Of a stretch of DNA of 64,000 nt, positions 22,463 to 62,660 are shown one piece after another. A model generated the notes under the pieces. It was not told the origin of the DNA, ran no database searches, and saw nothing but the letters and a program-made list of their open reading frames with translations. Origin of the DNA: Thermodesulfobacteriota bacterium. Lineage in GTDB: Bacteria > Desulfobacterota_D > UBA1144 > Nemesobacterales > JAJCZQ01. Made by a program: the position numbers and the translations under genes. Numbering within the stretch: the stretch's first letter is position 1; every line of letters begins with the position of its first letter. The stretch is from positions 1 to 64,000 of the forward strand of contig CBDBDR010000015.1 of the NCBI GenBank assembly GCA_965203965.1. The letters run 5' to 3'.

Positions 22463-25165
<2,703 letters not shown>

Positions 25166-31300: not shown

Positions 31301-32935
31301 AAGGTGTTCAAGACAAGCGATAATCCTAAGATAATATCCTACGCAGTTCTCATCTTCTTGATAATTGCAGATCTGGACAAACACATGATTCTTATGCGCA
31401 GCCTCTGCATTGCTGATGACGTTCAGAAAGTTAGCCAAGAAATGATTGAAGCTGACAGTGACCTAAAACGTTGGCATGGGTCATTTCTGGAAAAGTGCAA
31501 TCTATTTACTGTAGGTGCTAGCCAATCGGTGATGGAAAATAGTGAGGAAAGGCTGGTCGTGGAGGAAGTGAATAAGAGCGTTTCTTGGCCACTACGCACA
31601 ATCTCTGATTCTGTTTCCTCTCCACACTTGCTTCCTGAAGTTGAAGAACTACTTGTTCCTCAGCATCCTACTGGTCCTTCTCTCTCAGCAGCAGACAAGC
31701 TACGTCTTTCTGAGCTAGGTCTTTCACCTGATGAACCTCTTTTTCGAATTGGTAGACTGTGTGGCAACAATTTCAAAACCTGCAGTAACTGTGAAAGTAG
31801 CAATCAATCTCCAGAGCTTGTTTTTCGACCAGAAAGTCTTACACTTCACCAGTATCAGGTTCTTGTAGACAATGGCTGGTACCGCAGAGGAGGTGTGGAC
31901 ATGTTTCGAGTACGTTATGTTCACTCCCTGGATTGCAGTGACTGGGAGACGAGAGTTATCCTCTCTGAGTTCAACCATCGCTCCCGTAAAAGCTATCGAA
32001 AAGTGCTCAAGAAGGTGCCAGACAGTATGACCATTGAAACCATCCCTACCCAGTTCGTGAGAGAGTCGTTTGAGCTCTACAATGAATACAACATAAAGAA
32101 GCATGACAAGTCTGATATTTCTTCTTACTATTACCATGAGCATGCTGTCAATAGCCCAATCAGGAACGAAACCATTGACGGGATCGAGTATGGGACCCAT
32201 CACCAGTTGTATCGGCTGGACGGGAAGCTAGTTGCTGTTGGACTGATCGATATTGTCCCTAATGGAGTGGTGAGCCTGTACATGTGGTATTCTATGAGCA
32301 AGAAGATGCAGAAACTGTCTCTCGGAGTCTACTCTGCTCTAAAGGAGATCGAATTTGCACAGAAACTAAGCGAACGCAACCCCAACATCAAGTACTACTA
32401 CCTGCAAGGGTGGAATGGCAACAATCACAAGCTCAGTTACAAAGCTAACTACACTCCCGGTGACTTCTATAGTCCTTGTACTGTCACAGACTGGGTGTGT
32501 GGACTTGATGGAGTCAAGAAAGCTCAAGAAGAGGCTAGAGAGAAATGGAGACAAGCTCAAGAAAAGGACACAGCCACCGATCAGACAGATAGTGGTGAAA
32601 TCAAGGAGACATCTGTCAGTGTCGAACAGGCAAACAGTGTTTCGGGGCCAGAGAAAAATGCTGTCAAGAAGAATGTTGTCCCTGGCGATGCCTTGCCACT
32701 GGACAGAGTACGTCGTGAGCGTTTGACTGGTTCCAGCAGTGTTGACGTTGGGAGTGTGGTCATTTGTCTGAACCATCAGCGATACCTCCCCTTCCGTGAG
32801 TTAGTGGAGAAGTACCGGTTAGAGGATAAGCAAAGAGAACTACTGGAGACTCGTCTGGAGGAACTAGTACTAGCAGTGGGGCCAGAACTCAGCTCTAACA
32901 TGGTTATCGATATGAAAGCCTGCTCTTTATTATGA
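28364..32935 (+). CDS. ARM/HEAT-like helical protein fused to an ATE1-type arginyl-tRNA-protein transferase domain, with predicted N-myristoylation motif; 4 exons, roughly 1370 aa
   Basis: Exons 28364-28402 (MGGLFSKNEDRST), 28460-28517, ~28572-28801 and 29155-32935 join in frame. ATE_N-like CSNC...YQVLVDNGWYRRGG. ATE_C-like ESFELY..Y....H...YGTHHQLYRLDGKLVAVGLIDIVPNGVVSLYMWY...LSLGVYSALKEI...YYYL...KLSYK. Confidence 0.8.
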
Positions 32936-40622: not shown

Positions 40623-43600
40623 TTAAAGGACCTCCCACTCATCAAGGGTAACCGTCTTTTCAAGATCCTTGCTGCCCCGACCAGGGTATGTTCCACTCCT
40701 ACTCCTACTTGATCTTCTCACACACACAGGCATCACTTTTACCTGCTGCTTAAGAACAGATCCACGCTCATCAATTACTAAAAGATGACCATTGCCAGTT
40801 AATGATAGTTTTTCGAATTTGCCAGGAACATGTCTCCAGTAGTCTCCTGTTGGATTAGAATCTGATACTCCATGTCGTGCGAGAAGGCTTCCTGATGGCG
40901 TGAGAGTGAATACTTTACTATTTGCTGCTGCTAGCTGCTTAGCTTGTTCTCCAGGTACTAGTTCCCACTGAGTGCCAACAGGAAAATCACTAGTCACTCC
41001 GATCCGTGCATATGCGTTATTATTCTTGTCACATGCCCACACAATCAGATCATCTGGACTGATTGCTATCTGTACAAAAGGCTGTGCATTGCCATCTACT
41101 GGTATCCAGGCTGGAGCCATGCCAGTACCAGGCTCACGAGGATGAATTCCAAACCGAAAGTGAATGTGACCAAGATGATCTAGTGCCCATGCCACACGGT
41201 TCCCAATAGCTAGTTTAACTACACTCAAGTTTTGCATGTGTGTGCCAAGCTCTATGTAGTCCCAAGAGATGCCATGCGGCATGCTAGATGTAATACTCTG
41301 TCGTGACCAGATCTGCTGTTTACTAACAACCCAGAGAGCAGAAGAAGATGCAGCCACGTTAGTGACCTTTCCTTGACACTCAACATGCTCTGTTCTGGTG
41401 TTCGATGGCACACAGCATAGCTCTCCATCATCCCGTACAACCCATGGTGCAATGTGGCCTGCTTCCACTTGGCTCCAAATACTGAGGTCAAAGATCTCAT
41501 CCTCGCAAATTTTCTCATAGCTAAATCCCGTAGCATTGCCCCAACATGCGTGTAGTTGACTGTCGGATGTTAAGACACAAACACCAGACTTCATGCAAGC
41601 AGATATTCCAAGCAAACGATGTGAAAGTCCTGCTGATATACGTGAGGACATTGACATTAGCAGACTGCCAGTATTAGATCGTTCTATTGACATGAACTTC
41701 AATAAAGAGTCAGTCGGTGAAGAAGCTGGCGTCTTGGAGATAGTGGAGTGTGTGGTTTCCCACCATTGGCCAGAGCCAGAGGGCTCATGAGAGGATGCCC
41801 CAAAGTGGAAGAATAATCTACTGTGTAAATTTACACCCCAGACTATACCAGATGCTGTGACACTGACTGCTGCTAGTAAAGGTGCCTTGCCAACCTTTGC
41901 CCATCCTTCCCCAATTGGAATAGAACCAGTGATTCCTTCTCTGACATACGATTTGCCAGCAGCATCAAGAGCCCAAACAATGCTGTCACAACAGGCAATC
42001 TGGGTAAAACACAAAGGATGAGTTGGGATTTCCCGCCATACAGAACCATCGGGAAGACCCTCGGACACTTCTTTCCTATAGAAGACCTTGCCATCTAACA
42101 TTAACATCCAGATAGCATTCTCATCACAGGCGATCATCTTTACTTGTCTCTTCATTGGTGTGTTCTTGGTTAGATTCTTCCATGTAGATCCAGACTGATT
42201 GAGATCGCTGATGCCAAGACGTGCATATGCATGTCCATTGTACACACCCCAAACAATTTTACCAGAGGAAGAGGAGGAGATAAGGTTCATAGGATGCTTC
42301 ACCGGTTCCCACCTGAGACGTCTGTTGTCTGGTCTGCTCCAAAAGACGGACCCTTTTAGGTCAGTGATCCAAAGTGATGTATTTGACAGGCACACACACT
42401 GCACATGACCACCGGGTATTGGAATTGGTGACCATATATCACCATTGTATGAAACACTGTCGGCACACATTGCTGGATCATCTATCACTGGTTTGTCTTC
42501 TGCTTCATCTTCCTTAGGCGAGACAAAAGATGTCATGATACGAGACCTGCGATGAGGCGGGAGAGCATCAGCAGGGTTTGATTGCTTAGTCTGCTTCACC
42601 AGATCTCCTAACATGTTGTAGAAACCTGATTCAACACGTGTCATTCTATGCGATATCTTCTTCTTTTCTTCCTCTTCATCCACATCCTCATCTGAGTCAA
42701 AATGATGGAGAGCTAAGTGTTCTTCTAGATCCTCGTCCATGCTGCTTTCTGATAGAGTATTCGACAGTTCTTGATCATGGCTGCTAGCTGATACATTCTG
42801 CTCATCTTTCTGTCCCGGTAATTGTGCCTGAGTAGGTGATTCTTCTTCCTCGTTCTCTTCTTTCAGTGCATAGGCTCTTCGTCGTTGAATGAATGGAGTA
42901 TGCTGGTCTGTTTTTTCGTCCACCTCTTTTACCTCTTCTTTAACAGTCAACAGACACTCGTCATAAGGCAATTCCTCTTCATTCTTTCTTTCATCGCTTT
43001 TCTCATTTGCAGGAACATTTTCTACCTCATCCTCATTGCTTTCACTTTGTTTCTCCGTCACGTTCACTATATTTTCTTCGCATTCTATTGTCTCATTTGC
43101 TGTATCAGCTTCTTTCTCTACAAGGCATTCTTTTTCTTTGAGGTCATCTTCACCAATTTCAGCGTCATCACAAGTTGTGACAACTGGAGGTAAGATCTCT
43201 GAAGAACTCTCATTGACAGATGTAACAGAGACTGGTTTGGTATCTTCAAGCTTCTCCTCTTCTTCTACTGCTTCGTGTAAGCGTTCAATTGAACTGTGTG
43301 TGCCTATAAAAACAGTTGAAAATACAGTAGTGAGCTAGTGAACACTGATAATGAATAGATTATACTGATAATAATTGAGTAAAGGTGTTGCTTACTAGAT
43401 GATGGAGTGAGTTTGTGTCTTTTCTTTCGTCTCTTAGTCTTGTTTCGTTTGGTTTTTGAAACAGACTGTACAACAAGGTCATCTTCATCTGCAACTTCAG
43501 CCATCTTTGTCCTCCGCAGCGTCTCCTCTTCTGATACCACACGAGTGACAGCCAACTAATGTACAGAAAATAAATGTGTGATTGTAACGGGACATGATAA

Positions 43601-45977
43601 TTCTGTAGAAGCTTACAAGAGGTGACTGCTCTGATACAGTTGTGCTAGGCTCCTGCTGAGGTGATTTAGGACGTATGAGCTGTTCACTGACAGAGGTCAG
43701 CTTGCTCTTGAACTCGGCTACTTGTAGACCAATCTTGATGTTCCGTGCCCTCACAAACAGACTGGGGCTACTGGCTGCCTGTATATCCTGAGTCTTGGGC
43801 TCTCTGTTCTCTGCCTCTTCATCTTGTTCACAATCTTCAGTGGTAGTCTTCAAGTCGCTGTCGGTGGATACGGTCTCATTTTGACTATAAGCAACACTGT
43901 CATCCATCGTGGTGATAGGACCATCTTTCTCTACATCATCTTCCTCCTTATTATCTGTCTCATTTGTCAGTGCAGCTATTTCCTCATCGTTGGGATTTGT
44001 GACAACAAGAGCAGGGAACTCTTGATTATTTTCAGACTGACTCTCCTCCTTTGTATCTTCTGCTGTCAACTCCTCATCGGCCACCACTTTCTCTTCTGGT
44101 TCATCATCTGCAATTGGTTTGATTTCCTCCATTATCGATTCTTCCTTATTGTTTATAACTTCTTCCTCTATCACTTCCCTTTTCTCTTCAACAGGCGAGG
44201 GTTGGGACACATCAATTGGCTCTTCTGCTGGCACAGATAATTTCACTATTTTTCTCTGGTGCCCCTTACACAGCAGGTACACATTCCCGCTGTCAGTAGC
44301 CATGTCTACTATACCCTGTCCAAGCGATATACCACCTATGCAGGTAAGTGACTGTGGCTCTAAGACTAGTACAGTGTTCTCATGTGAAGCAACCACCCAT
44401 TCATCACCAAGTGGCTGAATTGAAGACAGCTGCCATGATGATCGGAGTACAAGAGGAAGAAACACACCACCAAACAGTGGTATGACAGGATGTGAATGAT
44501 CCAAGAGAACATCCTTGTACTTGGCAGTGGACAAGACCTATGAATAGAATAAACACAATGAACAGTGATTGCTGGCACGATTCAATAAAGACTAACACAG
44601 TGCCAACATAATGTTGGTATCAGCTTTTAGAGATCCAATTTGAATGTAAAGCATTATACTAACCTTTCCTTGGTTATCTGTTAGCCATAATCTTAATCCT
44701 GGTCGACCAACTACTGCTTCACCTGAAGATGGTAAAAAACAACCTCCATATTCACCGGGCTTTCTAGGGCGGGAACCAACCTATAGTAAGAGAAGAAGGT
44801 GCTTACTATTGTCAATAAGTAAACATGATTGTCCCTAGTACACATCATTGCACTACTCTCCATGCATGTACTGTTCTGAAATATGGGAATTTTGTAAAAG
44901 ACAATCCCCATTTTGTGTATTGTATTTAGTACCATAAACAAAATCCTTGTGACCAAACTAAACAAAATGAGTCAGGAAGGAATGTGTATCGACAGTATGT
45001 CGATTATGAATTCTTTTTATGTGCTAAAATGTTATCATTCACAAAATATTTCACCAAAATGCTTCAGATAACAACTAACTTGAGTTGAAGCTCCAGTGTC
45101 TGTGTTGACGAGAAGAGGGAGGTTGAGAGTGGAGACTAGAAGATGGGGAGCGGAGTAGCTCAGTGATGTGACCTGAGAGCCACATTCCAGGAGTGGTGAA
45201 ATATCAAGATGAGCCTGAACCAAAACATAGTGGAAAAATAAACAATCAGACAGGTCCTTTCTAAGCTAGTTTTTAAACACCCACACCCACATTTGCATAT
45301 ACTAAATAATGGTTAATATACCTTGTCTTTGTTAAATGCAAACGATAGAAGCTTTCCTGATGCGTAACCAACAAACAATTTATCACCATTGTCATTCCAC
45401 AATATAGCAGTAACTGGACTACTGTCTCTCTCCTTCACATGATGTGACTTGACCTGAATTATGAAGAGGAATGCATAAGGACGTGTAGAAAGTAAATAGC
45501 TAATGAAGAAGACTAAGACAATGCAAGTTAGCTTGAGGAGTAGACATGAATGGTACATGTACTTACATGAGTTCTGTGAATGTCGGTTACAATCAACAAT
45601 CCGTCCGATAAGCCCAAAGCAAAAAAACTATGTGCACTGCACAATCTCACCCTCTTGACAGCTGACCTAGACTCCTTTTATGAGAAGCAAGCAACACATA
45701 AACATATTGCATACACAAGTGGAGACTGGAAATATAATATGCATGCATGTGCACAGGTACATTATAAGGTTACACTCACACTAAGCTCTCTAAGGACCCT
45801 CTTTGCTGCAGTGTCAATTACCCTGACATAGCCCTGTTCAGAGCCAACTGCAAGCAGGTCACCACACGCGTGTAGACACGTGTATTCCACACGCTGTCTG
45901 AAGAGTCCAATCTCACCAGGCAAGAGAGTGTTCACGACCAGTAGCTGGTCTTGCTCGCTGACAACACTTGCCGTCAT
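40623..45977 (-). CDS. TECPR2: Tectonin beta-propeller repeat-containing protein 2, multi-exon
   Basis: N-terminal WD40 (EYTCLHACGDLLAVGSEQG), acidic central linker, TECPR repeats (VWALD..G..Y.R.GI....P.G..W), C-terminal LIR-like DEWEVL. Confidence 0.88.
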
Positions 45978-46225: not shown

Positions 46226-49200
46226 ATGGCTGGGATCATCCAAGATGACGCTCGGCTTCACCGTCTCTGCCACAATGGGAAAATGGGAGATATTAAAGAT
46301 TACTTGGACGTGATCCCGGAAGAGAACGTTGACGATCGTCTCAACAACAGGCGAGGCGTGTTCGGCTACACTCCATTACACGAAGCAGTCAGTGGCGGAC
46401 ATGATGTGGTGCTAGACTTTTTACTTGGAAAAGGTGGAGACGTGAACTGTCGTGCTAACTCAGGCTACACGCCACTGCACCTCGCTGCTAGCGCCGGACA
46501 CATCAACTGTGTAAAGGCTCTGCTAAAGCATGATGCAAACATCAGTTTCAAGGACGACTATGGAAAAACACCCAAACAGACCGCTGGACTGAGCTCCAAG
46601 AATAACATAGTCAAACTGCTCCGTAGTGAAGGTAAGGGAAAGGGCGAACAAGTTATATATCATAAGCCTGGGCCCGTAATGGATTAAAATCAACAGTACT
46701 CATTGTATCTGCATTAACTGTAAAGGAGCACCTGAGCTGCATAACTAGTAACAGCCATTTTGAAAGCTTTTTCAGTACATTTATAAGCCGACAGTCAAAG
46801 GACTATAAATGAAGACTTTCACAGTGTCACCACCAGGGTTGATAGAGTTGTTTTTGGACAAAAAAAAATAGCTGGTGTGTTTGAAATACCTTCTTGTACT
46901 GAATATGAAACTAGTAACCTAATGTACACATGCTTGTGTGTGTTTTTACCTACTGGTACTGTTTGAGTTTATGGGAGTTATCAGGTAGAGTACCTGCCTT
47001 GGCTAAGACAATAGTCCTAGCTCCAAACTAGCCAGTTTGAAACAATGGGTAGTGTCCCTCCCTCTCTTAAAATAGAACTTAGCAGTTTACACTATGATGC
47101 CATGCTTATAAAATGTGTGTGTAGTAACCACTTTGCCTGCCTTGGCTAAGACTAGCTCCAAACTAGACAATGGGTAGTGTCCCTCCCTCTCTTAAAATAG
47201 AACTTAGCAGTTTACACTATGATGCCATGCTGTCAGAGTTTATCAAATGTGTGTGTTGTAACCACTGATTGTGGTTTGAGATACACACACTGTATCTATT
47301 CCATTTTGCATGTGATTACATCAGAAAGGATGTTTTTTCAACAAACTTTTCATTGTATAATTTCCAATAAAGCGAAACTTTTCATAACAGCAAATCTTTC
47401 ATCCATAATTTATTAATTTTATTCACGTTTTTAACCTTTTTCAGAAATTATCAAGGAGGTAGAGAAAGAGGGTGACAACTTGACTGATCTTTTACGAGTA
47501 AAGAATGAGGAGTTGGAGAAGGACTGCCTCGAGCGAGCTCTCACAGCTGCTGTCACGACTGGTAACCACTTCAATGTGGGCAAGTTGATTGTTAAGGGTG
47601 CCACAAATATCGACAATGCCCTCAAGCAAGCCATCGAAACAAAGAAATACCATGCCACGGCCATGCTTCTTTTGGTTATTGCTGCTATGAAAGGAAATCG
47701 TCAGCTTGTTCTGAAGCTGTTTACTGAGTATTCTGGGGCTGTTGCTCTCCCTGAAGGTGTAGAAATCACTGAAGAGGATATCAAAGAAGTACAGAAAGCT
47801 GTTACATCTGGGCAAGTATCCACAGTCGTACCAATTGAGATAGCTCGAAGAAAGGGTCAGAATAGTGTCCGAGAGGAGCTGCTTCTTCGCACGGATGTGA
47901 AGCAAGATGAAGGCACCGTATATTGGCATGGGCTACGGCTGCTGAATATTGAGCTCTCCTGGATCAGAAAGATTCACTGGGTAAAGAGACTACGTCTTGC
48001 TCGAAATGGATTCCGCTTCATTCCAAGTGAAGTTGGACAATACTTGAAACAGGTAATTATCAATTACTGCCAAGTATTTACTTCTACATAAAACGTAGAT
48101 AATTGCCCAGATATTGGTTGAACTGCTTAGATTCTTGCGATTACGCTAGTACAATTGGCCAAGAAAAATAATGTCACCGCTTGCCATTCCTGTCGGTTTA
48201 CACTAATCCGCTAATTCATACATGTATCTGGCGATAAAGGTAGACAATTCAATGTGGTGTGGTAACGGACTAGGTATGTAAAGACCAAAAAGATTCAATA
48301 AGAGCTTACCTCGGCATTCATGCTTGATCAATACTACTGAAATTATATTAGGGATGATGGCAGTGCATCCCTATGTAAGGATGTATTAGCGTTCAAACGC
48401 TGATATTTCACCTGGTGGTGAATTGTGTATGTCCAGAGACACTTAGATCTGCTCTCTGGCGTTGACCCATCTTTATAGTACCAATGAGATTGTTCAAAAT
48501 TGTTACTAAAGTGATGAACCTGGAAATGGTGAAAATTGACTTTCGTCATCTTCTTTCTTTCTTCAGCACGCCTAGCGCCTTTACTCGAGCAGTGCCCAGC
48601 ATGAAACACCCACGAACAGCCATGAAATTTTGCTGCCAAGTGCCTTTTGAACTTAGTTTTTAGCGAAACAATGATATATATTCAACGATTTTACGATCAC
48701 AATCAGTTGTCAGCTAAGCATTAGACGCCATCTTGTGATATTGCGCAATATGCAATCACGCAAATACTACAACCCCATGTAGAGAGCAGCGCATATTGGA
48801 GTCTGGAGACTTCAATGAACAATTCAGTGAGTAAGATCGTGTAGGACCACCATTTTGCTACTTGCTAGATAGTAGAATAGCCGTACTGAATTTCTAAGCA
48901 ATAGTGGGCGAGGCTTGTATGAAGAGCTTTCATGTGTGGGTGAGCTAGTAGTTTCAGGATTTTGGAGATGCACAGCATAGTTTGGGCTACAAGTTAGAAA
49001 GCAAAGCCATCAACAACAGCAAAAACTAAACCAATGGTGGAAACTAAGAGCATCAATTCATGCATGCATTCTCAGTCAACACCATGCAGCACTCCCGGCC
49101 TATAGCCAGTAAAGCGTGTGTGGAGAGCATAATCAGAGTGAGTAGGCAGGAGTAGGACACTCATGCATTTGATTAGAAATTCCAAATCCACACATGATGG

Positions 49201-52200
49201 CTGTTTCTAAAGGTAGACTAATGAATAGTAGTGATGGCTGACAGTACATGTACGCTGTTTTTATAATGGATGGAACTGGACTTATAAAAGATAAACAGCA
49301 GATTTCTACTATCCCAAAGCGATCTTCCCTGTCTGCTAGTTCGAGTAGATACTGCTAAAGTGAGAAACGAGTAGAATCTGTGATTGTGGGCCATCATACT
49401 GGTTCTCTATGATGCATGTGGCAATCGTCTGTGAGTCATCATGGGTATAGAAAGCGAAATACTGCTTGATTGATTTGCCTATGTGTAGCTTAATCATCTT
49501 GTCAAAAGGATGTGGAAATGAAGACTGATCTGACAAAACTAAAGGCTCGTCTGCACTACAGAACTGGTTCAATGTGCATTAGTTAAAGATCAGATCATAG
49601 TGCATCGATCTGCTTACCACATGTCCGCACTGGTTGCAAATGCTGTTGTCATGTGACGTAAGCAACAGCTCGCTAAACAGCAAGAAAACTGGCCTTGTCA
49701 CATACTAACGCTATTCTAGTGTGTTTCGTGTCCTTTCTTTGCCCGAGCGCCGACCAGAGCTTCCATAGTACTAGTCACACGCCATGTGTTCGAGACCACT
49801 CCCATATCCAATCCAGTTCAAGTCACTTCAATGCACCTCCGTATGTGCACATCGATTCGCGTAGATTCACTTTTGTAAAATTGACGTGTAATGTAGACGG
49901 GATTAAACTACGCATTTTGAATGCGCATTGAACCGCATTAGAGCCCTAGTGCGGACGAGCCTTAACTAATTTGAAGTTTGAATAAGCTGCATTAGTAATT
50001 CATTACCAAAGTCAAGCAAACCATGAAGCACATCAGTTTTTCATTAACATTATTAATTTTCTCTTTTCCAGGTTGTGAAGTTGGATTTACAGCACAATGA
50101 GCTCACAGAAATACCTCGGTGTATCCTTGAGCTGCCTAGTCTAACCGAGCTCATCCTCTCCCACAATCATATTGTGGAATTGCCTGATATACATGAGTGG
50201 TCCGCTGGTCTGACAGTACTAGATTTGGCTTTCAATGAGCTAAGCAACCTCCCTAATACAATCGTAGCTCCCTCCATCAGGACACTGAATATCGGCGGCA
50301 ACAAGTTTCGCTTCGTTCCACTTTGCATCTGCTCCTTTACCAGCCTTCAATATCTTGATCTCAGTGAAAATGTTGATATTCTTTCTCTTCCTGTTGAGAT
50401 GGGTCGACTCTCTAATCTCACCAAGCTAGGACTGGTAGGTCTAAAGGATCTCAGTGATCCTCCACGTAATGTCCAGCGTGATGCAAGAGACTGCGTTCAC
50501 TACCTCAATAGCAAGCTTCGCAGTGCTAAAAAATTTTATCGCATGAAGCTTATGCTTGTTGGCAAGCAAGATCGAGGTAAGACAACTTTGGTAACTCGAC
50601 TGCAAGGCAATGAGATCGTGGGTCCCAACCAGTCTACGGTAGGTGTAGACGTGAGCGAGTGGAATTATGGTGGTATTGGCAAGCGCAAGTTTCAGTTTAG
50701 TATCTGGGACTTTGGTGGTCAAGAAGAATACTATGCTACTCATCAGTGCTTTCTCTCTGAGCGATCTATGTACCTCCTTCTTTTCAACCTCAAGCACGGA
50801 GAAAAAGGAGTCGAGGAGCTCAAACCATGGCTTGACAACATTGTCCTCAGGGCGCCACGTTCCTGTGTCATCATTGTTGGTACTCATCTTGATGAAGTGG
50901 AAGACTCAGAAAGGCCACAGATCGACCAACTTCTCAACAGTGTGGCCACTCTTGCCAGCAGCTATGGCAACAAGCTGCAAGTTCCTGAAGTATTGCCAGT
51001 TGGTCTTGTGAACAGGCTAGAGAACATAGGAGCTCTTCGCGAGGCAATATACTTACATGCTTCCGAGTTTAAGGCTCGAGGAAACCAGCCAATTATGGGA
51101 CAAGAGATTCCTGCTAGCTATTTTCAGCTCAACAAAGAATTGGAGAAGATACAACAACAAGTGAAAGAAAACAAGAGTGAGCCAATCATGCATGCCGAGC
51201 GCTTCAAGGATCTAGTTCAACAGCTGAAGCTCCCTGACATCCACAGCGATGGAGAGCTGCGAACAGCCACCCTCTTCCTCAACGAGGTAGGAACTATTCT
51301 CCACTATGATGATCGTAGCCACAACTTAAATGAGCTATATTTCGTGGATCCTCGTTGGCTTTGCGACATGATGTCAAAAGTTGTCACAGTCAGAGAAAGA
51401 AACAACTTTGTCAAGAATGGAATTCTCCATAGTATGTACATACCATTTCTTTATCGTGACAAACGATTTCCCTGGCAGTACTTTGAGCAGTATGTCACTC
51501 TTCTGGATCGCTTTGAAATAGCTCTTCCTCTCGACAACAAGCGAATACTTATTCCCTCCATGTTGCCCATTGAGCGTCCAAACGATGCTGATCTGTCTAG
51601 TCATCCAGATGGCCCTTACTACATGCGCTACATCACATTTGCTACTACTGTTCCTCCTGGATTCTGGAGCCGACTTATCTCTCGTATCATGCACACTGTG
51701 CCTGAAGTGTGCCATGCTGTTGATGTGAAAGCTGCCATGTCAAGTGATGAGGAGGCTATGGCATATTCTTATCCAGGAACACCAGATAAACCAGGTGACT
51801 TACTTATGGATTCTTCTGAGGCCGTCTCTCCTGCTGGACCTCAATCTCCCAAGCCACAGTCTCCTTTGTCTACTCCTTCTACTCCTTCTACTCCCGGTAG
51901 TCAGCCTACTGTTCACCCACCCCTTGTTTTGCCTAATATCAGTCGCATTATTCATGATGAAGACTTTGGCGATGTCAATCCTGAAGACATCAAACTGGTG
52001 TACTGGAGAGAAGGACTAGTGTATGATGGACCTACAGTTAGTTTTGCTGTGGAGTCACTGACAAGATCAGGGCATAGATCAAAATCTGGTAGACAAGGTG
52101 TGTTATTAAAGGCATCTCCTACTGGGAAAGGCACCAAGACTATCTGCCTCTTGGTCGACTTGGTATTGGCACTTATTCATGACTGGTATCCAGGCCTGAA

Positions 52201-55000
52201 CGAAAGTACCTTTGCCAGTGGATGTGGTGTTGAGCAATGCATCCCTTGCTATGAGTGCCTCAGAGAAAACCATAGTGATCCTTTTGAGTTTGAAATTGAG
52301 CAATCACGTCTACATATAAGTAACAATCAGATGCAGATACGATGTGGATACAACACAAGAGATGATTCAGCCAATCATTTAGTCCAATTAAGTGACATTG
52401 TTCCAGATATGCTCTTGAGAGATCTTGATGCTGTATTTCTCCTTAAGAATTCTGAAATCAAGTATCAAGAAGATGCCAATTCTTTGCTAGGTGAGGGAGG
52501 CTTTGGAAAGGTGTATCGAGGCAAGTGCAGAGATAAGAGTGTTGCTATTAAGAAGTACATAGTGAACAGCAGTCGTCTTGAAGATGCCTTCAGTGAGCTT
52601 CGAGCAGAAGCTCTTGTTCTTCAGAAGTCTCATCATCCGTGTTTAGTGTGTCTTGTGGGAGTCTGTGTTCATCCTATGATGGCACTGGTTCTAGAGGAAG
52701 CTCCCATGGGATCTTTAGAGAAGTACCTCATTAAGAAACCAATACCAATTTCTCGAGTTGTGATCTATCGCATGGCAGCTCAGATTGCAGCTGCACTAAG
52801 GTTTCTTCATAATACGGGGTACATCTTTAGAGATCTGAAAGCAGCAAATGTGCTCGTTTGGTCACTAGAGCCTGAGTCTTTGTGCCACTGCAAGGTAACA
52901 GATTTTGGCATCGCCACGCACCTCTCTCCAGTTGGAGCACTTGGAATTCAAGGAACAAAAGGGTTTATTGCTCCAGAGGTTCTCTACATTGGAAAGAGGA
53001 AGGCTGTCTATACTCACAAGGCTGACATTTTTTCTTTTGCAATGTTGCTGTATCAGATGATTGCTCGTCGCCATCCTTTTCATAATGTACAGCCAGTGAA
53101 GATTGATACGAAGGTTGTGAGTGGAGAGCGTCCGAACATTGTTGATGTCCCTTTCGCTGACACTGGTTACTTTTTCTTGACCTACTTGATGAAGAAATGT
53201 TGGGAAGACAGACCAGAGTTACGACCACAGACCAGTGATATCATCAACAAAGTGTCTGGAATGGTCATGCAGTCAGTGATGGCCATACATTCGGTGAACA
53301 GCCGCTTCTCTGTACGCCGTTGCTGTGCGATTACACCAAGTAACTATGCTCGTGCTAATGTAGGCAACCATCCAAGTGAGCTTTGGGTTTGTTGCGATGG
53401 GGCCGAGGGAGCGGAAGTTAATATCTACAGCACTCGAATGGTGAAGCTGAACAAAAACTTTATCAAAGATAATCAAGTGCAGTGCATGTGCGTGTGTGGA
53501 GACCATGTCTGGGTTGGATCACGAGCTGGCATTGAGTATGGAGTGATTGATATATTCAGCATCACATCACGCGAACTTGTTCACAACATCCGAATGAGAG
53601 AGAATTCAGTCTCCTGTATCACCTGCTCTGACTCAACTGTCTACCTCGGTACACTTGAGGGCTACTGTTTTGCTTTCTGCATGGATATCAAGGCCATTCA
53701 GTCGAATGCTCGTCCACGATATAAGTACATCTCTGAGAATGCAGTGGATGGTATCGCTGTGACTAACAAGCATGTATGGGTGTCTCACACTAAACTGATA
53801 TACTTCCTCAACCTTGAAACACTGCAAATGGAACACTCCTGGCACCGACAAGGGAATCAAGATGAAGGGAATCAAGATGCGTTCATTGGACAACTGTCAT
53901 GTTCAAATGATGGAAAGATCATCTGGAGTGCTCATCTTGGAGGAACAATATTATCTGCTTTTGATGCACACGATGAGACCCACTTGTACGATATCAATAT
54001 CCAGCAAGAGTTCATACGTTTAGTGGGGAAAGGAATCCACTCAGAATATGATATCATAATGACAGCCGTAACTCCAGCACTAGACACAGTGTTTGTGGGC
54101 ATGGCAACAGGTCACATCGTGGTATTCCATGAGCAACTAGTAATGATGATCGCTCGACCATACACAGAGTATGTGAGGTTCCTTTGTCCGATTTTATCAG
54201 AAGGCCCTTGCCAGACAGAAAAGTGCATGGTCTTGGCTGGAGCTAAAGGATTCACCAGCCCTTTACCAGAGTACGATGTTGTTCTTTCTACAGCCGACTC
54301 AGAGGAAGAAAAGGGACATCAATCAGCCGGTGTACTAGTGATGTTTGAAGCTTATCCTGGCCCAATGATAAAGCAGATGAAATGTCTTGAGGATGATGAA
54401 GGAGGCTATTTGTCATCACACACTAATCTCGCCAGAATGATTCGTAGTCAGCACTTCAAAGATGCTACTCATATCCTTGATTTAGCTGGAAAGAGTGAGA
54501 CACTGAGACCAGTTCTACAGAAAACCACCAAAGATTTTGAAGAAAGCGGCATTCGTCACTCTATGCTGACCTCCTCCATAGCTGGCTCTCTTCCCTCTAC
54601 TCCTATCAAACAATCAAATGAAAATTTTGAAGAGAAGAAAATTTCACCACTTCCCTCATCCACCGAGATAGATGGACAACCTCCTTGTAACAAGGAAGAA
54701 ATTATCAAAGAATTGGAATCTCCTCCTCGACCACGAGCAAGAACCAACACGGTTATTCAAGAGACAATGGATGTGGAAGTGCAAGGCCAAGCGGTACGTA
54801 TCTCCTGTCCCAAGCCAGCAACAATGTCAGAAGTTATGAGAGAGCTAGCCATCAATACATCAAAGGAGACAACTCAGAACCATTGTCTTGGGTATAGAGC
54901 TCTAGATTCGGGAATGATGATAAAGGTGCTCGCAGACGATGAACTACAGCAGTATCTCAAAATGGAGTCTCGACCCAGCCTAACCTTGATCCTAAAATAA
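46226..55000 (+). CDS. LRRK-like Roco kinase copy 1: ANK-LRR-ROC-COR-kinase-WD40-like plus PB1-like tail; exons 46226-46631, 47445-48052, 50072-55000
   Basis: Ankyrin GYTPLHEA/GYTPLHLA, LRRs, ROC RMKLMLVGKQDRGKTTL and IWDFGGQEEYYATHQCFL, COR PPGFWSRLI, kinase LGEGGFGKVYRG, VAIK, FRDLKAANVL, DFG, GTKGFIAPE. Confidence 0.92.
46993..47266. repeat. Two-copy tandem duplication (~140 bp unit) in Roco copy 1 intron 1
   Basis: cctgccttggctaagac...caatgggtagtgtccctccctctcttaaaatagaacttagcagtttacactatgatgccatgct...gtaaccact starts at 46993 and again at 47136, with small indels. Confidence 0.9.
49543..49962. mobile_element. PIF/Harbinger (Tourist-like) MITE, 420 bp
   Basis: TIR AGGCTCGTCTGCACTA / TAGTGCGGACGAGCCT (1 mismatch in 16), TAA on both flanks (49540-42, 49963-65). 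Confidence 0.8.
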
Positions 55001-55183
55001 CTATACTAGTGTGTGCTATGTGTATTGCACCTTTTACCAACTAGGACTCTACAATAGACTAATTTGATTTCAGTGTAAATTTGCATGCAGATCATTATTA
55101 TTTCGCGCTTTGGTTCGTCACGTCCACGTGATAGAGATCTCTTCTGGATGTGTCGAGAGTCGAGATTTTAATAGCAGGTGATC

Positions 55184-58100
55184 ATGGCAAGATATTTTAG
55201 CTTCAAGAAAAAAGACAGCAACTCGCTTCAAGGTAAGAAACTCCGCGTCCGTGCTTCTGAATCATTTGCGGCTACGACCTGTACGAGGTTGCCGCTGGAG
55301 CAAATGTACAATGTATTCGAATGGTGGATAGGGCATTATTCATTGCGGTAGGAGGTGGTCGGATTTTTATTTTGGTTTGGTACAGATATTAGCGCCATTA
55401 TTACCCTGGGGTAGGGTTGGGTTTGTCTGTCTGTATGTAGTATGTGTATGTACAAAAAACGTGGCTGTTTATTGCCTTACTGCTCAAAGATTGTCATGAA
55501 ATAGCTCTCAACAGCTTGGTTGTTGAATATTTATTCAACGCTTGCGAAGTCATGCATGAAAGTCTTCTGTCGCGTGCTACGGCCATGCATGTATTCCTAT
55601 TAGCAACATCGCCGATTAGAACATTCCGGTAAGTAGGTGTGCCACAATTGTGAGACGTGGCCAAGCCATTAAATTAAAATCCACCAATAATTATTTTGAC
55701 AAAACGCTAATAATTATACATGTAGTACTTTGCGCCAATATTTTCTGCTATATGGTATGAGATACCTATGTCCATTGCTGTTCCATTTAGCGACTGATTA
55801 GAGCATAATAATTATTAGACCACAGCTAAACAACGCTCACGTGTCTTTGCTCGTCGTTCGTGTTGTTTTTGTTTGCTGTTGCTATGGTCTAAATCAGTTA
55901 GACTGCGCATCCAATCGGATCTACGCGATGTAGATGCCCTCACGCCGTTACCATAGCGCCCTCGCTACACTCGGATGCTATATAGCAACGGCTCTCGGGC
56001 TTCTAAATTGTGTAGATCCTCGGATGCGCTGTCTAACTATTATTTATAATGAGATTTACAGTGAAACCCCTCTTAATTAGCATGGACCGGACTCATCTCT
56101 CTATAATAGCACTTATTATTACTGAACCCCAAATAATGGATACCCTAGCTCTCTAAAATGGACAATATTGTTTGTCCTAATGGTGTCCGCTTTATAGAGG
56201 CTCCACTGTATCGCAAACTTCTGACTTGTTTAACTTTCAGAAATGGTGTTAGTTTTTAAGATTTGGTTTGTTTATAGTTTTAGAATCAGTTCTGTTTTTG
56301 TTTGAGGTTTGGACGTTTATTATGACAAGAAGGTTTTCATAATAAAAGCTTGACTCAATGAATGATTTTATGTAAGTCCACAAAGAAGTCTGTGGAGTAT
56401 GTTAAGCTCCTGTTTGAGCTAATTTATAATTCTTAAAACCTGTATTGGCAAAAGGAAATGCCATTTAGTAAGTTAGTGGTTTTCCAGAAGTAACACAAGT
56501 ATGCAGCAGTCATAGTGCATTGTCTGGTAACAAGGATTAAAACTCACAAGACTGAATAATTATTATTGCACCAAAATTTAAACAGCTTGATGGTAGCCAG
56601 CAAAAGTATCCTGATCTACTTGAGTGCCCGATACTGTTTTGCTTGGCTACTGATGAATATCGAACAAGTCTGAACTTCATGGAATCCTCGAGGACAATTC
56701 ACTACATAGTTAGCAAAATAGCTTTACTCTCTCAGGCCCTAGTAAGACAGTTAGTAGATGAGTACTGTTCGTAATTTTGATGCTAGAATTGGTATGCCAT
56801 TTTCCAGCACAGCGCCCACACATTATGCTCACTGCAGCTACATCCATGGAGGCGCAGCAGAATTCGACTAGATGATAATCATTCAATGACTCAATACAAT
56901 GTTAATGTTGTGACTATGGTTAATCGATAATCAAGGTAGAGGAGCTCCACATTATGACACTGTAAGCGTGGATGCTTTTTACTATGCGAAAACAGTAAAA
57001 TTTCTGTGTTTATTGTAGCAAATTTTTACACTACTGATTTAATAGTGTGTGATAGAAACTTTTCACTAAAATTTTAATCATAGAAAAAATCCAAGAAACA
57101 GAGGATGAGGATCGAATAAAGAATGAGGAATTGGAGAAGGACTGCCTCGAGCGAGCTCTCACAGCTGCTGTCACAACTGGTAACCACTTCAATGTGGGCA
57201 AGTTGATTGTTAAGGGTGCCACAAATATCGACAATGCCCTCAAGCAAGCCATCGAAACAAAGAAATACCATGCCACGGCCATGCTTCTTTTGGTTATTGC
57301 TGCTATGAAAGGGAAATGTCAGCTTGTTCTGAAGCTGTTTACTGAGTATTCTGGGGCTGTTGCTCTCCCTGAAGGTGTAGAAATCACTGAAGAGGATATC
57401 AAAGAAGTACAGAAAGCTGTTACATCTGGGCAAGTATCCACAGTCGTACCAATCGAGATAGCTCGAAGAAAGGGCCAGGATAGTGTCCGAGAGGAGCTGC
57501 TTCTTCACACTGAAGTGAAACAAGATGAAGGCACCGTATATTGGCATGGGCTACGACTGCTGAATATTGAGCTCTCCTGGATCAGAAAGATTCACTGGGT
57601 AAAGAGACTACGTCTTGCTCGAAATGGATTCCGCTTCATTCCAAGTGAAGTCAGACAATATCTAAAACAGGTAATTAGTCAGCATAATATTTTTTCCAAT
57701 TAGAATTAAGGCCTACAAAGTGCATTGAATTCCCTTTGGAGAATTGCTCGTCCAAGGTGAAGTCAATGCGCATTGAGTGCGTTCACAATTTAGTGACAAT
57801 ACAAATAAAGAAACGATTTGAAAAATGAATTAGCCATTACCGCTGTCATGTGACCAAATTTCTCTTGGCGTCCTAGTCACTTCAGTAGCCCATCCAATCA
57901 TCCATGCAGTTGTAGTACCCCTCTAGTCTCTCTGCATGCACTCACGAAGCACATTTTCACGATTTCATGCAAGAGGTGTGACTTCGTTATTGATGAATAA
58001 TAATATGATTTGCTTGAATCGCTTCCAGTCCACTTCCAAACCATCTCCGTACATGGTTTAGCTGAAAGCGCATTGAACTCGAATGCGCATTCAGTGTGAA

Positions 58101-61100
58101 TGATGCAAATCGAATTCAATGTGCATATAATGTACATTGAATTCGCAATTTTGCCATAGTATAATGAAGGGCCTTAAATGGGTGCACACTGCTCACTTCA
58201 TACTTGTTTACTCTTTCCCTATCTAGGTCGTTCTGCTTGATTTACAGCACAATGAGCTGACAGAAATACCTCGTTGTATCCTTGAGCTGCCTAGTCTAAC
58301 CAAACTCATCCTCTCCCACAATCATATTGTGGAATTGCCTGATATACATGAGTGGTCCGCTGGTCTGACAGTACTAGATTTGGCTTTCAATGAGCTAAGT
58401 AACCTCCCTAATACAATCGTAGCTCCCTCCATCAGGACACTGAATATCAGCGGCAACAAATTTCGCTTCGTTCCACTTTGCATCTGCTCGTTTACCAGCC
58501 TTCAATATCTTGATCTCAGTGAAAATGTTCACATTCGCTTTCTTCCTGTTGAAATGGGTCGACTCTCTAATCTTACTAAGCTAGGACTGAAGGGTCTGAA
58601 ATATCTCAGTGATCCTCCACGTAATGTTCAGCGTGATGCAAGAGACTGTGTTTACTACCTCAATAGCAAGCTTCGCAGTGCTAAAAAATTTTATCGCATG
58701 AAGCTTATGCTTATTGGCAAGCAAGATCGAGGTAAGACAACTTTGGTAACTCGACTGCTAGGCAATGAGATCGTGGGTCCCAACCAGTCTACGGTAGGTG
58801 TAGACGTGAGCGAGTGGAATTATGGTGGTATTGGCAAGCGCAAGTTTCAGTTTAGTATCTGGGACTTTGGTGGTCAAGAAGAATACTATGCTACTCATCA
58901 GTGCTTTCTCTCTGAGCGATCTATGTACCTCCTTCTTTTCAACCTCAAGCACGGAGAAAAAGGAGTTGAGGAGCTCAAACCATGGCTTGACAACATTGTC
59001 CTCAGAGCACCACGTTCCTGTGTCATCATTGTTGGTACTCATCTTGATGAAGTGGAAGACTCAGAAAGGCCACAGATCGACCAACTTCTCAACAGTGTGG
59101 CCACTCTTGCCAGCAGCTATGGCAACAAGCTGCAAGTTCCTGAAGTACTGCCTGTTGGTCTTGTGAACAGGCTAGAGAACATAGGATATCTTCGTGAGGC
59201 AATATACTTACATGCTTCTGAGTTTAAGGCTCGAGGAAACCAGCCAATTATGGGACAAGAGATTCCTGCTAGCTATTTTCAGCTCAACAAAGAATTGGAG
59301 AAGATACAACAACAAGTGAAAGAAAACAAGAGTGAGCCAATCATGCATGCCGAGCGCTTCAAGGATCTAGTTCAACAACTGAAGCTCCCTGATATCCACA
59401 GCGATGGAGAGCTGCGAACAGCCACCCTCTTCCTCCATGAGGTAGGAACTATTCTCCACTATGATGATCGAAGTCACAGCTTAAATGAGCTATATTTCGT
59501 GGATCCTTGCTGGCTTTGCGACATGATGTCAAAAGTTGTCAGAAGAAACAACTTTGTCAAGAATGGAATTCTCCATAGTATGTACATACCATTTCTTTAT
59601 CGTGAGAAACAATTTCCCTGGCAGTACTTTGAGCAGTATATCACTCTTCTGGATCGCTTTGAAATAGCTCTTCCACTCGACAACAAGCGAGTACTTATTC
59701 CCTCCATGTTGCCCATTGAGCGTCCAAACGATGCTGATCTATCTAGTCATCCAGATGGCCCTTACTACATGCGCTACATCACGTTTGCTACTACTGTTCC
59801 TCCTGGATTCTGGAGCCGACTTATCTCTCATATCATGCACACTGTGCCTGAAGTGTACCATGCTGTTGATGTGAAAGCTGCCTTATCAAGTGATGAGGAG
59901 GCTATGGCATATTCTTATCCTGGAACACCAGATAAAAAATCAGGCGACTTACTTATGGATTCTTCTGAGGGCGTCTCTTCTGCTGGACTTCAATCTCCCA
60001 AGGCACAGTCTCCTTTGTCTTATCCTTCTACTCCCGGTAGTCAACCTACTGTTCACCCACCCATTGTTTTGCCTAATATCAGTCGCATTATTCATGATGA
60101 AGACTTTGGCGATGTCAATCCCGAAGACATCAAACTGGTGTACTGGAGAGAAGGACTAGTGTATGATGGACCTACAGTTAGTTTTGCTGTGGAGTCACTG
60201 ACAGGATCAGGGCATAGATCAAAATCTGGTAGACAAGGTGTGCTATTAAAGGCATCTCCTACTGGGAAAGGCACCAAGACTATCTGCCTCTTGGTCGACT
60301 TGGTATTGGCACTTATTCATGACTGGTATCCAGGCCTGAACGAAAGTACCTTTGCCGGTGCATGTGGTGTTGAGCAACGCATCCCTTGCTACGAGTGCCT
60401 CAGAGAAAATCATAGTGATCCTTTTGAGTTTGAAATTGAGCAATCACGTCTACATATAAGTAACAATCAGATGCAGATACGATGTGGATACAACACAAGA
60501 GATGATTCAGCCAATCATTTAGTCCAATTAAGTGACATTGTTCCAGATATGCTCTTGAGAGATCTTGATGATGTATTTCTCCTTAAACATTCTGAAATCA
60601 AGTATCAAGAAGATGCCAATTCTTTGCTAGGCGAGGGTGGCTTTGGAAAGGTGTATCGAGGCAAGTGCAGAGATAAGAGTGTTGCTATTAAGAAGTACAT
60701 AGTGAACAGCAATCGTCTTGAAGATGCTTTCAGTGAGCTTCGAGCAGAAGCTCTTGTTCTTCAGAAGTCTCATCATCCGTGTTTAGTGTGTCTTGTGGGA
60801 GTCTGTGTTCATCCTATGATGGCACTGGTTCTAGAAGAAGCTCCCATGGGATCTTTAGAGAAGTACCTCATTAAGAAACCAATACCAATTTCTCGAGTTG
60901 TGATCTATCGCATGGCAGCTCAGATTGCAGCTGCACTAAGGTTTCTTCATAATACAGGGTACATCTATAGAGATCTGAAGGCAGCAAATGTGCTTGTTTG
61001 GTCACTAGAGCCTGAGTCTTTGTGCCACTGCAAGGTAACAGATTTTGGTATCACCACGCATCTCTCTCCAGTTGGAGCACTTGGAATTCAAGGAAACAAA

Positions 61101-62660
61101 TGGTTTATTGCTCCAGAGGTTCTCTACATTGGAAAGAGGAAGGCTGTTTACACTCACAAGGCTGACATATTTTCTTTTGCAATGTTGCTGTATCAGATGA
61201 TTGCTCGTCGCTGTCCTTTTCATAATATACAGCCAGTGAAGATTGATACGAAGGTTGTGAGTGGAGAGCGTCCGAACATTGTTGATGTCCCTTTCGCTGA
61301 CACTGGTTACTTTTTCTTGACCTACTTGATGAAGAAATGCTGGGAAGACAGACCAGAGTTACGACCACAGACCAGTGATATCATCAACAAAGTGTCTGGA
61401 ATGGTCATGCAGTCAGTGATGGCCATACATTCAGTGAACAGTCGCTTCTCCGTACGTAATTGCTGTTGTGCAACATTGTCTTGCAAATCTGCTCAATTCC
61501 ATAGCAGTAGCCAATTCAGCGAGTCTTGCAAATTCAACAGTAGGAGCCTATTGGGTGAGCTTTGGGTTTGTTGTGATGGGACTGAAGGAACAGAATTTAT
61601 CATTTACAGCACTAGAATGGAAAATCTGGGCAAGATACTCATCAAGAACAATCAAGTGCAGTGCATGTGCGTGTGTGGAGACCATGTCTGGGTTGGATCA
61701 CGAGCTGGCATTGAGTACGGAGTGATTGATATATTTTGCAAGACGTCACATGAGCATGTTCATAACATAAAAATGACTAAGTTGGTCTCCTGCATCACCT
61801 GTTCTGACTCAACTGTCTACCTCGGTACACTTGAGGGCTACTGTTTTGCTTTCTGCATGGATATCAAGGCCATTCAGTCGAATGCTCGTCCACGATATAA
61901 GTACATCTCTGAGAATGCAGTAGATGGTATTGCTGTGACTAACAAGCATGTATGGGTGTCTCACACTAAGCTGATATACTTCCTCAACCTTGAAACACTG
62001 CAAATGGAACACTCCTGGCACCGACAAGGGAATCAAGATGCGTTCATTGGACAGCTGTCATGTTCAAATGATGGAAAGATCATCTGGAGTGCTCATCTTG
62101 GAGGAACAATATTATCTGCTTTTGATGCACATGATGAGACCCACTTGTACGATATCAATATCCAGCAAGAGTTCATACGTTTAGTTGGGAAAGGAATCCA
62201 CTCAGAATATGATATCATAATGACAGCCGTAACTCCAGCACTAGACACAGTGTTTGTGGGCATGGCAACAGGTCACATCGTGGTATTCCATGAGCAACTA
62301 GTAATGATGATTGCTCGACCATACACAGAGTATGTGAGGTTCCTTTGTCCGATTTTATCAGAAGGCCCTTGTCAGACAGAAAAATGCATGGTCTTGGCTG
62401 GAGCTAAAGGATTCACCAGCCCTTTACCAGAGTACGATGTTGTTCTTTCTACAGCCGACTCAGAGGAAGAAAAAGGACATCAATCAGCCGGTGTACTAGT
62501 GATGTTTGAAGCTTATCCTGGCCCAATGATAAAGCAGATGAAATGTCTTGAGGATGATGAAGGAGGCTATTTGTCATCACACACTAATCTCGCCAGAATG
62601 ATTCGTAGTCAGCACTTCAAAGATGCTACTCATATCCTTGATTCACCTACGCATGTTTGA
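55184..62660 (+). CDS. LRRK-like Roco kinase copy 2 (no ankyrin exon, no C-terminal tail); exons 55184-55232 (inferred), 57084-57670, 58227-62660
   Basis: Exons 2-3 are near-identical to copy 1 with an intact ORF. Candidate exon 1 MARYFSFKKKDSNSLQ ends in phase 1 (g|gtaag), matching the phase-1 acceptor at 57084. The first exon is less certain than the rest. Confidence 0.8.
55814..55891. repeat. Short inverted-repeat element
   Basis: tagaccacagc ... gctatggtcta termini. Confidence 0.45.
55896..56038. repeat. Long imperfect palindrome / hairpin MITE
   Basis: agttagactgcgcatcc..gatctacgcgatgtagatgccc..gccgttaccatagc pairs with gctatatagcaacggc..gggcttctaaattgtgtagatc..ggatgcgctgtctaact. Confidence 0.75.
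56059..56208. mobile_element. Tc1/mariner-pogo type MITE, 150 bp
   Basis: TA|CAGTGAAACCCCTCT ... AGAGGCTCCACTG|TA: imperfect TIRs with TA target duplication. Confidence 0.7.
57709..58174. mobile_element. Degenerate PIF/Harbinger-like MITE in Roco copy 2 intron 2
   Basis: ttaAGGCC ... GGCCTtaa ends. Subterminal AATGCGCATT and GAATTC motifs at both ends; AATGCGCATT is also seen in the 49543-49962 element. Confidence 0.5.

Follow-up and report, generated by a model that had tools for sequence, protein, structure and literature searches.

Two tandem LRRK-type Roco genes on an animal-type contig: probable exon-limited gene conversion after an old duplication

Background

Gene conversion that is restricted to exons and leaves an unalignable intron behind has already been published, and its mechanism is known. 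In the copepod pairs GOT1Sd/GOT1Sr and GOT1p1/p2 the conversion is mostly exonic, the intron is very different in size and unalignable, and the islands of divergence are discussed as indel-driven or selected (PMC3728101). In Arabidopsis halleri HMA4 the long introns escape conversion while the coding sequence is homogenised, and insertions of transposable elements (TEs) hasten the escape (bioRxiv 10.1101/2025.10.29.685298). Here we describe two tandem Roco genes of the LRRK type, called copy 1 and copy 2, in a 64,000-nt window (positions 1-64000 of contig C15 of the assembly G000, a bacterial bin). While one GOT1 copy loses its frame, copy 2 holds a frame of 1672 codons, its main island appears to be anchored by indels, and it can be compared across lineages; and while the long introns of HMA4 are 5-6% divergent and alignable under dosage selection, the introns are here fully replaced and the pair is asymmetric, with a truncated duplicate.

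Besides, exon 5 of the primate red/green opsins shows a local peak of old divergence amid homogenised sequence, but the opsin introns are homogenised and the functional sites are known, whereas here the pattern is reversed and any function of the peak would be putative; indels and TEs are named there as terminators of conversion (PMC3924837). Exons 26a/26b of salamander Nav1.4 represent a partial tandem duplication of 3' exons that is also homogenised by conversion, and their alternative use is seen in transcripts, while at our locus in-frame splicing from exon 1 is only possible (bioRxiv 10.1101/2021.03.25.437018).

As for the proteins, human LRRK2 and LRRK1 and Dictyostelium Roco4 share with our genes the order of leucine-rich repeats (LRR), ROC, COR, kinase and WD40 followed by a C-terminal helix (E 3e-133 to LRRK2; TM about 0.70 in matches to the Protein Data Bank). 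They differ in that here the armadillo region is undetected, copy 1 has an extra C-terminal tail, there are three coding exons, and the genes belong to lineage-specific tandem duplicates, many with altered kinase motifs. The brown-algal ROCO candidate immune receptors also combine Roco expansions with variable LRR residues, but each of their LRRs is a shuffled exon with positively selected sites on the concave face, whereas here the LRRs lie unshuffled in two large exons (PMC11378527). A scheme of LRRK1/2/3/4 clades exists, in whose main text the word "sponge" is absent (bioRxiv 10.1101/2022.11.22.517582), and a title search with thin coverage of subscription journals found nothing relevant on a sponge or Amphimedon expansion of Roco/LRRK genes or on pseudokinases among them. 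The new lead of this work is the family-level convergence in the LRRs.

Young exon interiors, old edges and unrelated introns

Copy 1 consists of three coding exons (Table 1) and encodes 1980 aa, with ankyrin repeats, LRR, ROC, COR, kinase, WD40 and a C-terminal tail in this order and with intact kinase motifs. A single contig of run X7, which shows 3 differences over 6.1 kb, contains both of its splice joints (that X7 is an RNA run is a guess). Copy 2 has two exons, 2' and 3', under its single 1672-codon frame. Pfam Roc, COR-A and COR-B score above the cut-off in both copies, and in both the LRR precedes ROC, kinase and WD40 follow COR, and a C-terminal helix closes the common part. A preliminary reading made from the sequence alone had treated the two as a pair of Roco paralogs; they are tandem LRRK-type genes indeed, but copy 2 is partial. 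The similarity to copy 1 ends at 62643, directly after the predicted C-terminal helix, and copy 2 stops 167 codons earlier than copy 1; tblastn found no ankyrin exon for it nearby, nor any remnant of this exon or of the tail near it (best E 0.27).

Self-BLAST aligned two blocks, 47495-48059 with 57113-57677 (96.6%) and 50084-54482 with 58239-62643 (94.3%, including the patch discussed below). The exon interiors differ at 127 of 4572 nt (97.2% identity), so the long, near-identical exon tracts of the sequence-only reading were found again; its near-identity at silent sites holds as a uniformly low divergence, but about 7% of these sites differ (proportion of silent differences, pS, 0.072). The interior ratio of replacement to silent divergence (dN/dS) is 0.20, or 0.27 with transition correction, and the silent changes are not clustered (p 0.62). 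The 26 codons at the exon edges have a pS of 0.66 (p 1.5e-8). They had been thought to share no evident similarity, which is incorrect, since the amino-acid pattern is retained and it is the silent sites that are saturated.

The second introns lie at the same position and in the same phase. Their sizes agree with those first read, and the reported lack of similarity was confirmed, as BLAST gave no match. Local alignment against shuffles gave p 0.08 and 0.13 with one scoring and 0.02 and 0.39 with a laxer one, and the best stretch is a short motif inside repeat elements. The intron of copy 1 contains, at about 48381-49050, a multi-copy repeat and, at 49542-49963, an element whose inverted ends measure 17 nt, while that of copy 2 mostly consists of a segment that resembles a miniature inverted-repeat TE with 8-bp inverted ends (57706-58177), a putative assignment. 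All 8 gap runs between the copies are whole codons, in agreement with the earlier remark on frame-preserving indels, although within the rearranged loop the protein-guided codon alignment could mask frameshifts that compensate each other. No internal stop occurs in either copy.

The comparison with other proteins gives the order of events. P0123 is an ortholog of copy 1 (94-97% identical by region), and P0125, a predicted protein of 269 aa, carries the kinase alleles of P0123 and then a copy-2-type start of the patch. Over the 249 P0125 columns before the patch, 4 sites of the quartet group by lineage, 0 by paralog and 14 are uninformative, and among all proteins compared the copy-2-type motif KSAQF occurs only in P0122, which is copy 2, and in P0125. 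Because P0125 joins the two kinds of sequence, the duplicate would predate the split of the lineages, each of which would have homogenised its own pair. In addition, 12 derived residues are common to both window copies against P0123 and P0002, which agree with each other, and lie on both sides of the patch. The three-exon layout is shared by the relatives L001, L002 and L004, which makes the position of the intron ancestral. Thus the converted parts group by lineage and the escaped patch start by paralog (in one protein only), and young and old divergence alternate with boundaries at heterology, as in concerted evolution. The idea of an old duplication homogenised by exon-restricted gene conversion, put forward from the sequence alone, has therefore gained support from the saturated edges and patch against a uniform 7% interior, the ancestral intron, the shared derived residues and the two ways of grouping. 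At 23 of 26 exonic run-by-site differences the run shows the base of the other copy, so polymorphisms may be shared between the paralogs, but contig assembly can itself merge paralogs.

A patch at the start of the WD40 domain

The most conspicuous island lies in exon 3' at the start of WD40 (Table 1). It had been placed at about 61455-61785 and described as sharply diverged. Both quoted peptides are present and the pS of the patch outside its island is 0.64 (patch including island versus background, Fisher p 2e-13), but the patch runs on to 61802 and holds an identical island (permutation p 0.00025; 0.016 on silent sites only). The further proposal, that divergence is maintained there as in immune-type gene clusters, found no support. 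The dN/dS of the patch is 0.12-0.22 against 0.20-0.27 in the background and its ratio of replacement to silent changes equals that of the background (Fisher p 0.49), so that neither a dN/dS above 1 nor an excess of replacements, as expected of a diversifying cluster, was found. We aligned 116 of 120 listed homologs (334 were found), leaving out the own entry and three proteins with duplicated domains. The patch columns are conserved like the rest of the protein (114 homologs, the two closest left out; p 0.43), copy 1 has the family type, and copy 2 is the derived side in 31 of the 32 changes of the patch, the remaining one being unclear. P0003, P0016 and P0062 score unusually high for their identity, probably through internal domain duplications, and were kept out of the counts.

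The identity of the two copies dips by 30.5 points at the patch, while the minimum is -18.2 in 8128 homolog pairs and the range is -12.5 to +7.5 in 28 same-contig pairs, for which contig sharing, except in L001, is inferred from contigs of equal length. The dip is thus found in no other pair, and the tandem pair of L001 shows the reverse, being converted exactly there: from the middle of the region onward 22-25 of 25 residues per window are identical with nearly no silent change, against 13-22 of 25 elsewhere. This independent pair (L001:2181-4292 and 12359-14478, the same in L002) is converted in a sharply bounded tract of about 600 bp that covers the first half of WD40; its upstream copy is without DFG and the catalytic-loop Lys.

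In the structural model of copy 2 the insertion forms a low-confidence loop (pLDDT <50 at 294-314) between two retained strands of an intact propeller; the input alignments were copy-1-like, which biases the model toward an intact propeller. P0125 shifts frame and then stops inside this loop, where it differs from copy 2. An origin of the insertion from a transposon fragment was considered and dropped, as no second copy occurs in G000 (about 0.5 Mb outside the bacterial contig), and the insertion contains an internal 11-nt repeat. Judged from these comparisons the WD40 patch is probably not under selection; selection against conversion, which does not require a dN/dS above 1, may act all the same.

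Origin of the mosaic

We consider it probable that the locus is an old duplicate with recurrent exon-limited conversion and that the patch is a relic. A sponge-type LRRK gene would have been duplicated in tandem before the split from the lineage of P0123 and P0125; turnover of repeats would then have replaced the non-coding parts, and copy 2 would have lost the ankyrin exon and the C-terminal tail. Interlocus gene conversion at the DNA level, in effect from the constrained copy 1 to copy 2, may since have overwritten repeatedly those exon interiors that could still pair, its tracts halting near heterology, namely at the introns, the truncated 3' end and the rearranged WD40 loop. The exon edges and the large patch would be relics of old divergence, the patch consisting of two indel-anchored shadows of about 90 bp around a converted island, and copy 2 would be a derived, relaxed paralog of a kind produced repeatedly, with the residues of the last LRRs as the likeliest sites held against conversion.

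Several observations weigh against this account. Copy 2 looks constrained, because its frame is open over its whole length with every indel in frame; the WD40 part downstream of the patch has 0 replacement and 10 silent changes (p 0.005 versus the rest), and its propeller is predicted intact. Each patch shadow is longer than the 12-45 bp seen at the exon edges, and conversion can enter the patch, as is evident from the island; long shadows with an island would fit selection equally well. The evidence across lineages is one predicted protein known without its DNA, whose frameshift could be an assembly error and which needs two gaps to align to copy 2. No DNA of a close relative was found in metagenome contigs (31 loci; best long matches 50-55% identical), genome contigs (9 loci) or 4 related genomes, so the silent changes are not polarised.

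The same conversion history could be combined with selection that keeps the patch as a new binding surface on blades 1-2, a peak like those of the opsins or RHCE/RHD, which we regard as unlikely. Divergence peaks are a published signature of selection under conversion (PMC3924837), and the long shadows flanking a converted island, the in-frame insertion into a propeller predicted intact and the absence of replacements in the remaining WD40 would agree with it. Yet the patch shows no excess of replacements, both of its segments A and B adjoin indels, residues 1050-1200 are not enriched for changes in other duplicate clusters (0.71-0.82), and in P0125 the frame is broken in the loop, unlike copy 2. 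A recent chimera of copy 1 with an old third paralog, joined through one or two long tracts or unequal crossovers, is very improbable. It would explain the uniform silent divergence of the interiors, as from a single epoch, and a third, broken LRR fragment (P0121) falls in the same 90% cluster; but old and new sequence would have to alternate many times (edges of exon 2', intron, LRR peak, patch A, island, patch B, 3' end), a second lineage was homogenised independently, as seen in P0125, and the protein searches found no copy-2-type patch besides P0125.

That homogenisation affects coding exons only, and that copy 1 is seen spliced in a contig, might suggest a template of reverse-transcribed copy 1 mRNA. 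This origin is more improbable still, as copy 2 retained its intron and the similarity also stops in the middle of an exon at 62643; the tracts end 12-21 nt before the junction on both sides, which pairing of DNA predicts as well. A false tandem mosaic, merged or polished from haplotypes or paralogs, we find scarcely credible, even though a contig of host DNA inside a bacterial bin invites the thought and no long read covering both copies was seen among the run contigs. The flanks and introns are unrelated, unlike those of alleles, and the copy-1 contigs of X5 and X7 differ by just 2-3 nt over 4.5-6.1 kb. The junction of the copy 1 end with the spacer is bridged by contigs of two samples from two studies (54453-55502 and 54453-55492; 0-1 differences), that of the spacer with exon 2' likewise (56632-57156 and 56632-57139; 0-1 differences), although one of these samples may be the source of the assembly itself, and the copy 2 protein occurs on two contigs (P0122). 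Mis-assembly of the tandem pair is thus unlikely.

Copy 2 as a derived duplicate

Exon-3 residues 35-1470, the patch aside, contain 28 changes derived on copy 2 and 8 on copy 1, with 5 unclear. Nine of the 28 fall at columns conserved to at least 90%, which matches random placement (36% of columns), while 0 of 8 copy-1 changes and 3 of 57 differences among orthologs do so. Among the nine are three changes at near-invariant sites of the activation segment (Table 1). T962 corresponds to Thr2035 of LRRK2 by counting from the matched range with no gaps assumed, and the positions of Asp1994 and Asp2017 fit. LRRK2 T2035A is inactive in vitro (PMC4024040), but Roco4, which is described with an active kinase structure (PMC4017136), carries Asn at the very position of T962N, and the view that copy 2 is kinase-dead was downgraded for this reason. 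Copy 2 retains the VAIK Lys, HRD Asp, catalytic-loop Asn and DFG Asp and is by these residues not a pseudokinase.

For the 5' end, a candidate new first exon of 16 codons is predicted in the spacer; when the spacer was resampled 2000 times with a Markov model, 4% of the resamples yielded a site like it. It is also a possibility, judging from phase, that exon 1 of copy 1 is spliced in frame to the phase-1 acceptor of copy 2. In the X7 contigs neither exon 1 nor the candidate exon is joined to 57084, and gaps in contig cover prove nothing about the expression of copy 2. Four runs were covered, as contigs. X7 has one spliced contig of copy 1, and of the copy 2 exons only a 47-nt piece with both ends loose; the word shares of X6-X9, from one study, are 0.36-0.39 (expected 0.43 for copy 1 alone, 0.71 for both); and X1 and X5 have holes in their cover. 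None of these three observations was used as evidence. The spacer contigs of X3 have about half the depth of their neighbours (279-332 vs 435-660), and as contig depth is not copy number, a hemizygosity reading was not used.

The P0121 fragment, which consists of LRRs only, is seen as an allele in an X5 contig (58400-58484), and X1 and X5 have a loose end just within the acceptor of copy 1 intron 2 (50052). Together they suggest another partial duplicate or haplotype elsewhere.

The last LRRs and the family-wide pattern

A second, inconspicuous peak lies in the last LRRs, where a stretch of 45 codons holds 17 nt differences (scan p 0.0006; when only silent codons are counted, p 0.34). Of the 355 changes in four other duplicate clusters 38 fall in exon-3 residues 100-150, while six ortholog pairs have 22 of their 1564 changes there (7.4-fold, p 7e-15); these four were pooled from 9 non-window clusters, two likely same-species re-assemblies and three that lack most of the LRR or are too diverged being left out, and the pooled changes are partly non-independent, with two baseline proteins used twice. 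Residues 150-200 and 1200-1250 are also raised. At the protein level the last LRRs, and not the WD40 start, are thus a candidate for a surface that varies across paralogs, and the recurrent divergence sits elsewhere than the sequence-only reading had put it. That reading was right on the history and probably wrong on which patch matters.

Changes of the same kind (D>H, L>R, D>N/Y) occur in parallel in the last LRRs of duplicates, and D126 is changed in 5 of 5 clusters, including that of the window. Across 132 proteins the number of clades is 5 for H102, 9 for R104 and 17 for N126. For the change that recurs most often in a column, the median is 3 clades and the 95th percentile 11, so only D126N is an outlier by count. 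The LRR states co-occur with departures from kinase motifs (counts 23, 11, 14, 82; odds ratio 12, kinship ignored). The catalytic Lys, Asp, Asn or Asp is altered in 38 of 131 family members, which fall into as many as 27 separate clades. The HRD Asp is the residue most frequently replaced (by N, S, G or Y), while the ROC motifs are intact (P0002-P0214); departing cells number 45 of 384 for the catalytic D/N/D, 1 of 611 for ROC G1/G3 and 6 of 640 for structural kinase positions. As the family search was limited to long open frames, it excludes broken duplicates by its design.

Ser114 on the copy 1 side of the peak aligns with human LRRK2 Ser1292, an autophosphorylation site, and in inactive LRRK2 the LRR shields the kinase (PMC10786121). 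The recurrence in the last LRRs could reflect either a relaxed regulatory surface or positive selection. We tentatively entertain, as a rather doubtful proposal, that sponge LRRK duplicates repeatedly drop kinase catalysis, keep the GTPase and the fold and convergently remodel the LRR segment in which the equivalent of Ser1292 lies, that selection resists conversion there, and that copy 2 would be a regulator or decoy, perhaps with a new first exon.

Two candidate signals were set aside. A charge reversal of the last LRRs, in which 22 of 29 non-zero pairs become more positive (p 0.008; mean +1.6 vs -0.85 to +0.80 in 39 control windows), was weakened by control windows that are as one-sided (19 of 23 negative) and by the post hoc choice of the window. 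In a less circular test the catalytic residues were no extreme outliers, with DFG Gly, Asn and DFG Asp ranking 10, 71 and 98 of 467 columns; the HRD Asp fell out of the filter, and branch lengths were alike (p 0.27). The WD40 segment of exon-3 residues 1200-1250 (53669-53819) is enriched 2.6-fold in the other duplicate clusters and unchanged in copy 2, and the neighbouring residues 1185-1218 lose positive charge in 19 of 23 pairs.

We have here a clean case in which a striking island of divergence amid converted sequence need not be a sign of diversifying selection, as the large patch is lineage-specific and apparently indel-anchored, while the LRR peak, inconspicuous as it is, returns in several lineages. 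Should the family pattern be adaptive, the sponge duplicates, dozens in number, would show which surfaces of LRRK and which catalytic residues can be given up together, which would bear on kinase-independent roles and on the LRR-mediated autoinhibition of LRRK2; if the remodelling or decoy reading is true, sponges would offer a natural mutagenesis screen of LRRK autoinhibition. If it is not adaptive, copy 2 is an ordinary decaying duplicate kept young by conversion.

Features and genomic setting

Table 1. Coordinates of the features of the tandem pair in the window
Feature	Position	Strand	Remark
Copy 1 coding exon 1, ankyrin repeats, phase-1 donor	46226..46631	+	spliced X7 contig from 46162 skips 813 nt GT..AG
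Copy 1 exon 2, helical linker and first LRRs	47445..48052	+	X7 splice joints
Copy 1 intron 2, 2019 bp	48053..50071	+	skipped as GT..AG in X7
Copy 1 exon 3, LRR-ROC-COR-kinase-WD40-C-terminal tail	50072..55000	+	
Copy 1 side of the last-LRR peak, exon-3 residues 99-143	50366..50500	+	Ser114 aligns with human LRRK2 Ser1292
Copy 1 counterpart of the patch, first two WD40 blades, family-consensus sequence	53315..53626	+	
Candidate new first exon of copy 2, predicted	55184..55232	+	ATG to phase-1 consensus donor, 16 codons
Multi-copy inverted-repeat element in the spacer	55896..56038	.	
Copy 2 exon 2'	57084..57670	+	first 45 nt and last 21 nt diverged (old); interior converted; phase-1 acceptor retained
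Copy 2 intron, 556 bp	57671..58226	+	unalignable with copy 1 intron 2
Copy 2 exon 3', LRR-ROC-COR-kinase-WD40, 1477-codon open frame	58227..62660	+	
Second divergence peak: D102H, L104R, S105F, V/K122, D126Y, H143Y and linked silent changes	58521..58655	+	
Copy 2 activation-segment changes at near-invariant sites: A948T, T962N, G964W	61053..61103	+	
Rearranged loop, net +39 nt, internal 11-nt repeat, low-confidence surface loop in WD40 blade 1	61455..61556	+	
Patch segment A, homologous, pS 0.68, pN (replacement differences) 0.15	61557..61649	+	
Identical 22-codon (66-bp) island, probable short conversion tract	61650..61715	+	
Patch segment B, pS 0.60, pN 0.15, 3-nt deletion	61716..61802	+	

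G000 contains one 1.5-Mb contig with 44 tRNAs and 16 small contigs without tRNA. The bin is scored 99.5% complete and 0.07% contaminated, yet contigs C1-C16 (482 kb) are without tRNAs. C15 bears intron-containing animal-type genes and is an animal-type contig. Its repeats recur on C1, C2, C4, C5, C7, C11 and C16, which points to host DNA inside a bacterial genome record. The host is probably a sponge; the sole relative with an organism name among the proteins compared is P0144 of Ephydatia muelleri.

No immune-cluster context is evident among the neighbour genes of the window. They include a long FN3-repeat gene (784-13202), which we take to be usherin-like, a WD40 gene (19945-21552), a presumably Hsp90-like gene (23756-25165), an ANCHR-like B-box gene (26651-28183), a RING/B-box TRIM gene (36839-38446) and a tectonin-propeller gene (40623-44537). 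A 1264-codon open frame on the + strand (29141-32935) combines a weakly armadillo-like region with an arginyl-tRNA-protein transferase domain.

Within copy 1, intron 1 has an imperfect tandem duplication of about 140 bp (46993-47266), where a joint in X1 and X3 jumps back 114 nt, suggesting a variable number of units. Exon 3 has a 15-bp duplication (53852-53866); as it is missing from copy 2, P0123 and P0002, it is younger than the last conversion there.

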